DNA from: a virus
UHGV virus genome: UHGV-2159551
Length of the DNA stretch: 10,006 nucleotides
Strand: one strand, 5' to 3'
Shown here piece by piece: positions 2,286 through 2,456 of the stretch. Numbering within the stretch: position 1 is the first letter of the stretch; every line of letters begins with the position of its first letter. The position numbers and the translations under genes are program-made. Below the pieces are notes generated by a model. The model was not told the DNA's origin. It saw nothing but the letters and a program-made list of their open reading frames with translations, and did not search any database.

Positions 2286-2456
2286 CTACTTGGCTCCATC
2301 TTAACAGTGGTTTTTCAATAGTTAGATTTGATGCTCATTTCTGACAATTTAAACATTGCAAATGTATTGACTGTCAGATCTGAGCATATTACATTGTGAC
2401 CATTCAATCTGCTCACAAATGACTATTGACACATATTTTGATGGGTGTGACTACTT
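2286..2456. promoter_or_regulatory. Divergent regulatory region between regulator and pII, with three copies of a 15-bp operator-like motif TGCTCA-N4-TGAC(A/T)
   Basis: Seen directly: tgctcatttctgaca (2332..2346, forward), tgtcagatctgagca (2372..2386, reverse complement reads tgctcagatctgaca), tgctcacaaatgact (2410..2424, forward). Candidate sigma70 elements: TTGACT (2368..2373) with TACATT (2390..2395), and TTGACA (2426..2431) upstream of the pII start. Promoter assignment is tentative. Confidence 0.5.

Follow-up and report, generated by a model that had tools for sequence, protein, structure and literature searches.

The stretch of DNA analysed here (10,006 bases, hereafter the window) carries a CUS-1/YpfΦ filamentous prophage in which three copies of the motif TGCTCA-N4-TGAC(A/T) lie between a regulator gene and the divergently oriented replication gene pII. 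Comparison with related prophages suggests, at a probability that we put at roughly 0.78, that these sites are operators of the phage's own 148-aa helix-turn-helix (HTH) regulator and that the region is the immunity region of CUS-1/YpfΦ, analogous to the RstR/ig-2 region of CTXφ. The motif and its statistics, the pattern of its conservation, the exchange of the cassette that contains it and the correlation between recognition helix and half-site were all observed directly, and every comparative test that we ran favours operator sites that would control the pII promoter.

The window represents one 9502-bp unit of the prophage, integrated at dif. The unit is delimited by an exact 93-bp end repeat (positions 1-93 are identical to 9503-9595) and the E. 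coli dif sequence (GGTGCGCATAATGTATATTATGTTAAAT) is found at 9578-9605. Both the inovirus gene set (in the order pII, G5P, coat, a large pIII-like protein, DUF2523 (pVI-like), Zot/pI and secretin) and the integration at the chromosomal dif site were confirmed for the window. E. coli GN02323 matches the window at 100% identity and has two complete prophage copies in tandem (L001, 1-19901); the corresponding region of UTI89 is 99.7% identical. CUS-1/YpfΦ is located at dif, frequently as tandem copies. Two tandem copies are also present in Y. pestis NCTC5923, with a regulator that is 100% identical and an intergenic region that differs by one spacer base. Complete E. coli genomes have 1 to 15 prophage places per genome (median 2), and this exact immunity type, that of a prophage of extraintestinal pathogenic E. 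coli, was found in about 100 of the 5,426 complete genomes. The cargo genes at the left end differ between CUS-1, YpfΦ and the window copy. A DNA-level search of the deposited phage collection gave no match, CUS-1/YpfΦ being absent there at the DNA level.

The phage, named CUS-1 in E. coli O18:K1:H7 and YpfΦ in Y. pestis, and a presumed role of its regulator were known before. In YpfΦ the regulator YPO2273 occupies the position of rstR in CTXφ, was proposed to be a repressor and 'might also regulate' replication (PMC4266046), a role that according to that review 'awaits experimental demonstration', and the intergenic region of CUS-1/YpfΦ is 'believed to be involved in transcription initiation' (PMC4266046). 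Operator sequences for CUS-1/YpfΦ are described neither in PMC4266046 nor in the other literature that was searched. The operator sequence, the boundaries of the cassette and the set of heteroimmune variants are new; these details are what the field would predict and amount to an ordinary, expected kind of phage immunity control.

The original prediction had placed the three motif copies in the gap between the divergent genes, and its coordinates, strands and sequences proved exact: copy 1 (TGCTCAtttcTGACA) is found at 2332-2346 on the plus strand, copy 2 (TGCTCAgatcTGACA) at 2372-2386 on the minus strand and copy 3 (TGCTCAcaaaTGACT) at 2410-2424 on the plus strand, all three within the 171-bp gap that separates the regulator gene (1839..2285, minus strand) from pII (2457..3509, plus strand). 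The pattern TGCTCA-N4-TGACW has 3 matches in total on both strands of the 10,006 bases, against 0.01 expected by chance, and 0 of 200 dinucleotide-preserving shuffles reached three. Scanning the window with one mismatch allowed gave zero additional sites, and with two mismatches six more matches were found versus 5.5 expected, i.e. the chance level. A candidate fourth site at 2269-2283 (TGCTCAttgtTGCCC, within the regulator's first codons) was rejected: it has two mismatches, and such matches occur at chance frequency.

Extended by one base, the sites are 16-bp imperfect palindromes of the form TnSTCA-N4-TGASnA, a symmetry that is only partial in the window. O1 (2332..2347, plus strand, TGCTCA-tttc-TGACAA) is the distal operator-like site, O2 (2371..2386, minus strand, TGCTCA-gatc-TGACAG) lies within the spacer of the candidate pII promoter and touches its -35 hexamer, and O3 (2410..2425, plus strand, TGCTCA-caaa-TGACTA) has a possible roadblock position, the centres of O1 and O3 being at about -62 and about +16 on the assumption that pII transcription starts near 2402. 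The three centres (2339.5, 2378.5 and 2417.5) are spaced by exactly 39 bp, and within each dyad the half-site centres are 10 bp apart, about one helical turn. All three sites have one and the same left/right asymmetry, TGCTCA versus TGACA, with a right half TGAC(A/T) and not the mirror TGAGCA. This common asymmetry is a point against the operator reading, as it is not predicted by a simple symmetric dimer; it could encode orientation-dependent effects on both divergent promoters.

The search for the motif in related prophages that had been proposed as a check showed that the sites recur at the same positions in close relatives. They were found in all of 16 loci from viral and genome collections with a regulator that is 91-100% identical, the exception being a single changed half-site base in O3 of one locus (L017). 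We compared nine distinct intergenic sequences of the window's immunity type (type A; regulators 85-100% identical) column by column. Only 3 of the 33 half-site columns varied, against 53 of the 126 other intergenic columns (Fisher p = 4e-4) and 6 of the 12 columns of the N4 spacers (p = 6e-3); with the most divergent locus (L039, regulator 85% identical) excluded, the numbers of varying columns were 1 of 33, 39 of 126 and 5 of 12, respectively. For instance, the half-sites of O1 are invariant in nine of nine relatives around the spacers TTTC, GTTC, CTTC and TTTA, those of O2 are retained around GATC, GAAC and GAAG, and the spacer of O3 reads CAAA, TAAA, AAAG or GAAG. In L039, O1 and O3 are kept and O2 is a perfect palindrome (TGGTCA-GATC-TGACCA). 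Steady half-sites around a drifting four-base centre are the pattern that would be expected of a dimeric HTH protein reading major grooves one helical turn apart, one for each half-site. Across 43 loci, the core TGCTCA-N4-TGA is almost confined to the intergenic region between regulator and pII. At one locus (P0004/L040, regulator 87% identical, helix STLARMAAG) the sites have decayed and the neighbouring gene is not pII; we treat this locus as a remnant or a different context, and it counts against the operator reading.

We also found that the regulator gene and the intergenic region together form an exchangeable immunity cassette (1829..2456), as defined by the breaks of homology between the window and a relative with another immunity type (L003). 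Homology to this relative covers 1317-1828 (96.9%), breaks, and resumes at 2457 (92.9%); it resumes at 2438 in L002 and at 2458 in L004. The intergenic region of the window is present at an identity of at least 99% in about 100 E. coli records, and in about 60 others the match begins no earlier than the start codon of pII. At least four E. coli cassettes with the break at 1829-2456 were found upstream of pII genes that are 85-97% identical: pII shows 97.1% identity to that of the window in L002 and L003 and 85.4% in L004, and the regulators of L002 (type B) and L003 (type C) show 76% and 43% identity, respectively. Type B has the dyads GGACA-aata-TGTCC and AGACA-catt-TGTCT (2 matches versus 0.01 expected), which occupy the same alignment columns as O1 and O3 and have flanks common to both types, O3 and its counterpart both being followed by ATTGACA. 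The core switch from type A to type B is symmetric, TCA-N4-TGA being changed to ACA-N4-TGT, with T/A to A/T at positions -3/+3. In type C the repeat is ACA-N4-TGTSAC, found twice forward and once inverted (three matches versus 0.07 expected), and dyads of the form GACAC/GTGTC are present in L032-35 and in one Vibrio cyclitrophicus inovirus. The fourth E. coli cassette (L004) has an unrelated 60-aa protein (2648-2830) in place of the 148-aa regulator and three direct repeats of CTCATGAACTCA at 2874-2956, upstream of the 85% identical pII; the place is here taken by a regulator of another kind. At the level of sequence, the cassette swap between types corresponds to the heteroimmunity pattern by which regions of the RstR/ig-2 type are recognised.

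The same comparison bears on the possibility that the repeats are binding sites for pII at the plus-strand origin. Plus-strand origins of Ff phages have two inverted repeats and one direct repeat beside the nick site, and in the window gene II is directly preceded by a comparable set, a direct copy and two inverted ones; an AATAGT hexamer (2317-2322) resembles the Ff nick region. Yet pII is 97.1% identical in types B and C, in which the repeats differ, and homology resumes exactly at the pII start codon; as the repeats differ beside a near-identical pII, the motif follows the regulator and not pII. The AATAGT stretch, moreover, is located in the part of the intergenic region that is most variable among close relatives and is absent from types B and C. 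We therefore consider an origin function of the repeats the least probable of the explanations weighed here.

Since the regulator gene and the intergenic region are physically linked, an exchange of cassettes would by itself make any cis element of that region co-vary with the regulator, whatever the function of the element. This linkage objection to the operator reading is reduced, and still stands, because the correlation between recognition helix and half-site holds in distant relatives. The helices GISVSTLVRI(A/T)SG or GISISTLVRITSA are paired with TGCTCA in the window, L039, L041 and L042, and the latter two have the perfect palindrome TGCTCA-N4-TGAGCA though their regulators are only 56-60% identical. 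The helix GINVRTLVRIATA is paired with GGACA, and the helix GINIGTLKRIANA with GAACA/GTCAC. The correlation exceeds what simple physical linkage of gene and intergenic region gives. We also found regulator homologues (55-63% identical, with an identical recognition helix) just downstream of a resolvase gene on TrbL plasmids of about 41 kb (e.g. L037 and L038, 3001-3369), and plasmid homologues of this kind abound in E. coli and Salmonella, where they were found on hundreds of contigs. The 3 kb on either side of the homologues in L037 and L038 contain no TGCTCA-N4-TGA site; we list this absence against the operator reading, yet it is uninformative on the targets of the plasmid regulators.

For pII and the downstream phage genes, a promoter scan identified a candidate sigma-70 promoter at 2367..2395 on the plus strand (TTGACT-17-TACATT), the only rightward candidate that is conserved. 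Matches to the promoter consensus alone were not above chance (2 found versus 1.8 expected). The TTGACT/TACATT hexamers are unchanged in eight of the nine relatives, the ninth (L039) having TTGACG/TATATT, and types B and C have exactly one promoter each with a 17-nt spacing, at the equivalent place. The sites had been proposed to overlap candidate -35/-10 elements, which holds for O2, located in the spacer of the conserved candidate pII promoter; a further upstream candidate (TTAACA-16-TAGATT, 2301-2328) found no support and was rejected, its -10 hexamer being in the most variable part of the region. On the minus strand, relaxed scans gave no convincing promoter for the regulator gene and only weak candidates, one of which (TTGTCA-18-AACTAT, 2347-2318) overlaps O1. 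A GGAG ribosome-binding site for the regulator gene can be read from the sequence at 2294..2297 (minus strand), 8 nt upstream of the ATG, within a block (2294-2309) that is invariant in the first eight distinct type-A intergenic sequences and differs at 2295 and 2300-2301 in L039.

Between O1 and the -35 hexamer we observed an AT-rich stretch (2347-2366) with the palindrome ACATT-gca-AATGT, which is well kept in close relatives and lost in L039. This stretch touches on the question whether a host regulator (RovA/SlyA or another global factor), and not a phage protein, binds the three sites. According to the account given in PMC4266046 of the work of Cathelyn (2006), the presumed promoter region of YPO2274 (pII) is bound by RovA in Y. 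pestis, and phage genes are transcribed more strongly when RovA is lost. Sites for a host factor should nevertheless match across phages of the same host, whereas among E. coli prophages a different phage regulator goes with a different motif, and across genera the motif tracks the recognition helix of that regulator. In addition, sites for RovA/SlyA are usually AT-rich, unlike the G+C-containing dyad found here. Binding of the three sites by a host regulator is, in our view, quite unlikely; a host factor may additionally bind elsewhere in the intergenic region, perhaps at 2347-2366. The AT-rich stretch could hold a site for RovA/SlyA, IHF or a similar factor, which is possible because RovA binding was reported in Y. 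pestis (PMC4266046).

Copies 1 and 2 are also part of a 27-nt imperfect inverted repeat (2331-2357 / 2361-2387), which folds as single-stranded DNA (-13.1 kcal/mol, z = -3.9), and in one relative (L023) the spacers of O1 and O2 are now exact reverse complements. The pair could accordingly be a single-strand hairpin (minus-strand origin, packaging signal or recombination site) and not a pair of duplex operators. Covariation in the stem, though, does not exceed chance, 438 of 500 shuffles reaching as high a score. In L024 the central ACATT/AATGT stem is interrupted and in L039 it is gone altogether, yet both loci retain the half-sites. Moreover, O3 lies outside any hairpin and types B and C are without a tight hairpin at the place of O1 and O2. 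A hairpin at 76-175 with a dif-like arm is far stronger (-31.2 kcal/mol, z = -7.1) and is found in all immunity types, and since it is both stronger and conserved across these types it is the better candidate for a single-strand function. Taken together, we regard a hairpin function of the O1/O2 pair as very unlikely. Nothing was found at Rfam gathering scores for a known RNA element, and two sub-threshold matches to Rfam miRNA precursors were discarded, as they simply reflect the O1/O2 hairpin. The dif-like arm (GGTGCGCATAATGTACG...), from 78 onwards, opens the structure at 76-175, a single-strand hairpin of roughly 100 nt that is 95-99% conserved in heteroimmune relatives, which suggests that it is a folded attP for XerCD integration, as in CTXφ.

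The protein that we propose to bind the operators, a homologue of YPO2273 and presumed repressor, is of the XRE/Cro-C1 type. It contains an HTH_3 domain (PF01381, E = 1.6e-9, 38.1 bits versus a cut-off of 23) and matches the transcriptional regulator PHROG 3557 (E = 4e-74); the presumed repressed gene, pII, encodes a replication initiator (PF05144, E = 1e-73; PF05155, E = 4e-34). The AlphaFold model of the regulator (mean pLDDT 71) shows a five-helix HTH domain (helices 12-73, pLDDT about 85) that superposes on 434 Cro, SinR and C.AhdI at 1.4-1.7 Å, followed by a C-terminal hairpin of two long helices (pLDDT 60-75). In a structure search only generic HTH matches were obtained, with no confident counterpart for the C-terminal hairpin, and a domain search gave no peptidase, autocleavage or other recognised domain beyond HTH_3. 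Judged from the model, the C-terminal helical hairpin would suit oligomerisation and cooperative binding at the 39-bp spacing.

The closest parallel is with CTXφ of Vibrio cholerae, in which RstR represses PrstA through ig-2 in an allele-specific manner (PMC11509585) and is described, in PMC8402870 with reference to Kimsey and Waldor (2004), as binding as a dimer of dimers. RstR and the regulator both belong to HTH_3, and YPO2273 is called homologous to RstR in PMC4266046. In both systems the regulator and the intergenic region are exchangeable, allele-specific cassettes beside a conserved replication gene (PMC11509585). Both phages are filamentous and integrate at dif, and in both the HTH repressor gene points away from the replication gene, with several sites for the repressor (here predicted) in the intergenic region over the promoter of the replication gene. 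The differences are that the sites here are compact 16-bp dyads at 39-bp spacing, whereas RstR gives extended footprints, that the regulator (148 aa) is larger than RstR and has the C-terminal helical hairpin, and that the whole window lacks a LexA box even when up to 3 deviations from the consensus are allowed, LexA cleavage being required for the induction of CTXφ; CTG-N10-CAG is likewise absent from the intergenic region. In a tblastn search of 50,697 phage records, V. cyclitrophicus inoviruses and one lactococcal phage were the only matches at E <= 1e-3, and none came from a phage of V. cholerae.

With the lambdoid phages and 434 Cro/CI, the system shares the HTH fold (434 Cro, 1.4 Å over 63 residues), three operators, dyad sites with conserved outer half-sites and a free central spacer, and a change in the recognition helix that shifts specificity and goes with heteroimmune relatives. 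Unlike in those phages, the sites are 39 bp apart and not adjacent, the right half is TGAC(A/T) and not TGAGCA, the S24 autocleavage domain is lacking, and the target is the replication gene of a filamentous phage. Pf4r (repressor C) of Pseudomonas Pf4 is similarly a repressor of a filamentous prophage that acts as a dimer on repeated sites in the promoter region and controls superinfection (PMC8402870); Pf4r resembles the P2 C repressor and uses non-palindromic direct repeats, in contrast to the XRE-type regulator and near-palindromic sites found here.

Binding, repression, cooperativity and autoregulation are what we infer from these sequences for the operator reading. A dimer of the regulator would bind each 16-bp near-palindrome with one HTH per half-site. 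Occupation of O2, inside the -35/-10 spacer of TTGACT-17-TACATT, would exclude RNA polymerase, and O3 at about +16 would add a roadblock. O1 at about -62, like O3 39 bp away from O2, would stabilise the complex via contacts between the C-terminal helical domains and would probably also control the divergent promoter of the regulator gene. In this way pII and the downstream genes would be kept off, the prophage would be maintained and superinfection immunity would be type-specific. The arrangement had been interpreted as a repressor-controlled lysogeny switch. The comparative tests support the operator arrangement, with the switch best understood as one that acts on the replication gene, in the manner of CTXφ.

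The direction of the regulation is not given by sequence alone, and the regulator might bind the sites mainly as an activator or a Cro-like lytic regulator and not as a maintenance repressor, in line with the position of O1 (about -62 is typical of activators) and with the regulator's own promoter not having been located in the minus-strand scans. A site in the -35/-10 spacer and a site at about +16 are, in contrast, repressor positions. Furthermore, the regulator gene shares the position and orientation of rstR, cells with a resident YpfΦ are partly protected from superinfection (PMC4266046), and heteroimmunity by cassettes is a property of repressors (PMC11509585). A mainly activating or Cro-like role is, for these reasons, highly improbable.

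The operators had also been linked to a possible control of cargo expression, since the regulator and cargo genes are on the same strand. This link is weakened by a perfect 9-10-bp stem (ACGUGCAGU...ACUGCACGU) followed by the U-rich CUUUAUUGUG at 1784-1810 on the minus strand, between the regulator stop codon and the membrane-protein gene and on the conserved cargo side of the cassette boundary. The stem may be a terminator, and with such a stem and U-rich tail after the regulator gene the cargo genes need not be co-transcribed with it. One of the cargo genes (456-1250, minus strand) encodes a 264-aa protein with a DpnII/MboI-type restriction-endonuclease fold (PF18742, E = 7e-59) that also matches the 'Helical-REase' defence effector models of PADLOC (E = 1e-34). 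No methylase gene was found near this nuclease gene, so that host Dam would be the only protection if the nuclease cuts GATC.

We also observed that the sequence AGATCT, which contains a Dam site (GATC), is found within the pII promoter spacer of all three immunity types A, B and C (window 2376-2381, L002 2901-2906 and L003 2910-2915) and is kept across these types although the neighbouring spacer bases differ. A Vibrio relative has GATC upstream of a TATATT hexamer in the gap between regulator and pII. Some type-A variants (GAAC, GAAG) no longer have GATC, nor does L031. Dam methylation of the central GATC of O2 could influence how well the repressor binds or how strong the promoter is, as with agn43/OxyR, an idea that we consider unlikely; if true, it would tie silencing of the prophage to DNA replication or to the methylation state.

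CUS-1/YpfΦ is a chromosomal resident of pandemic Y. pestis as well as of extraintestinal pathogenic E. coli, and modest effects of the phage on in-host fitness have been reported. Its immunity biology, as read here, is as expected from CTXφ and the lambdoid phages, so that the gain is practical and not conceptual. The specificity of the regulator might be changeable by mutation, because a change from S to R in the recognition helix accompanies the change from TCA to ACA in the half-site core. The 16-bp operator, the mapped cassette boundary and the natural specificity variants would thus provide handles on induction or curing of the prophage, on immunity across types and on the change of specificity.
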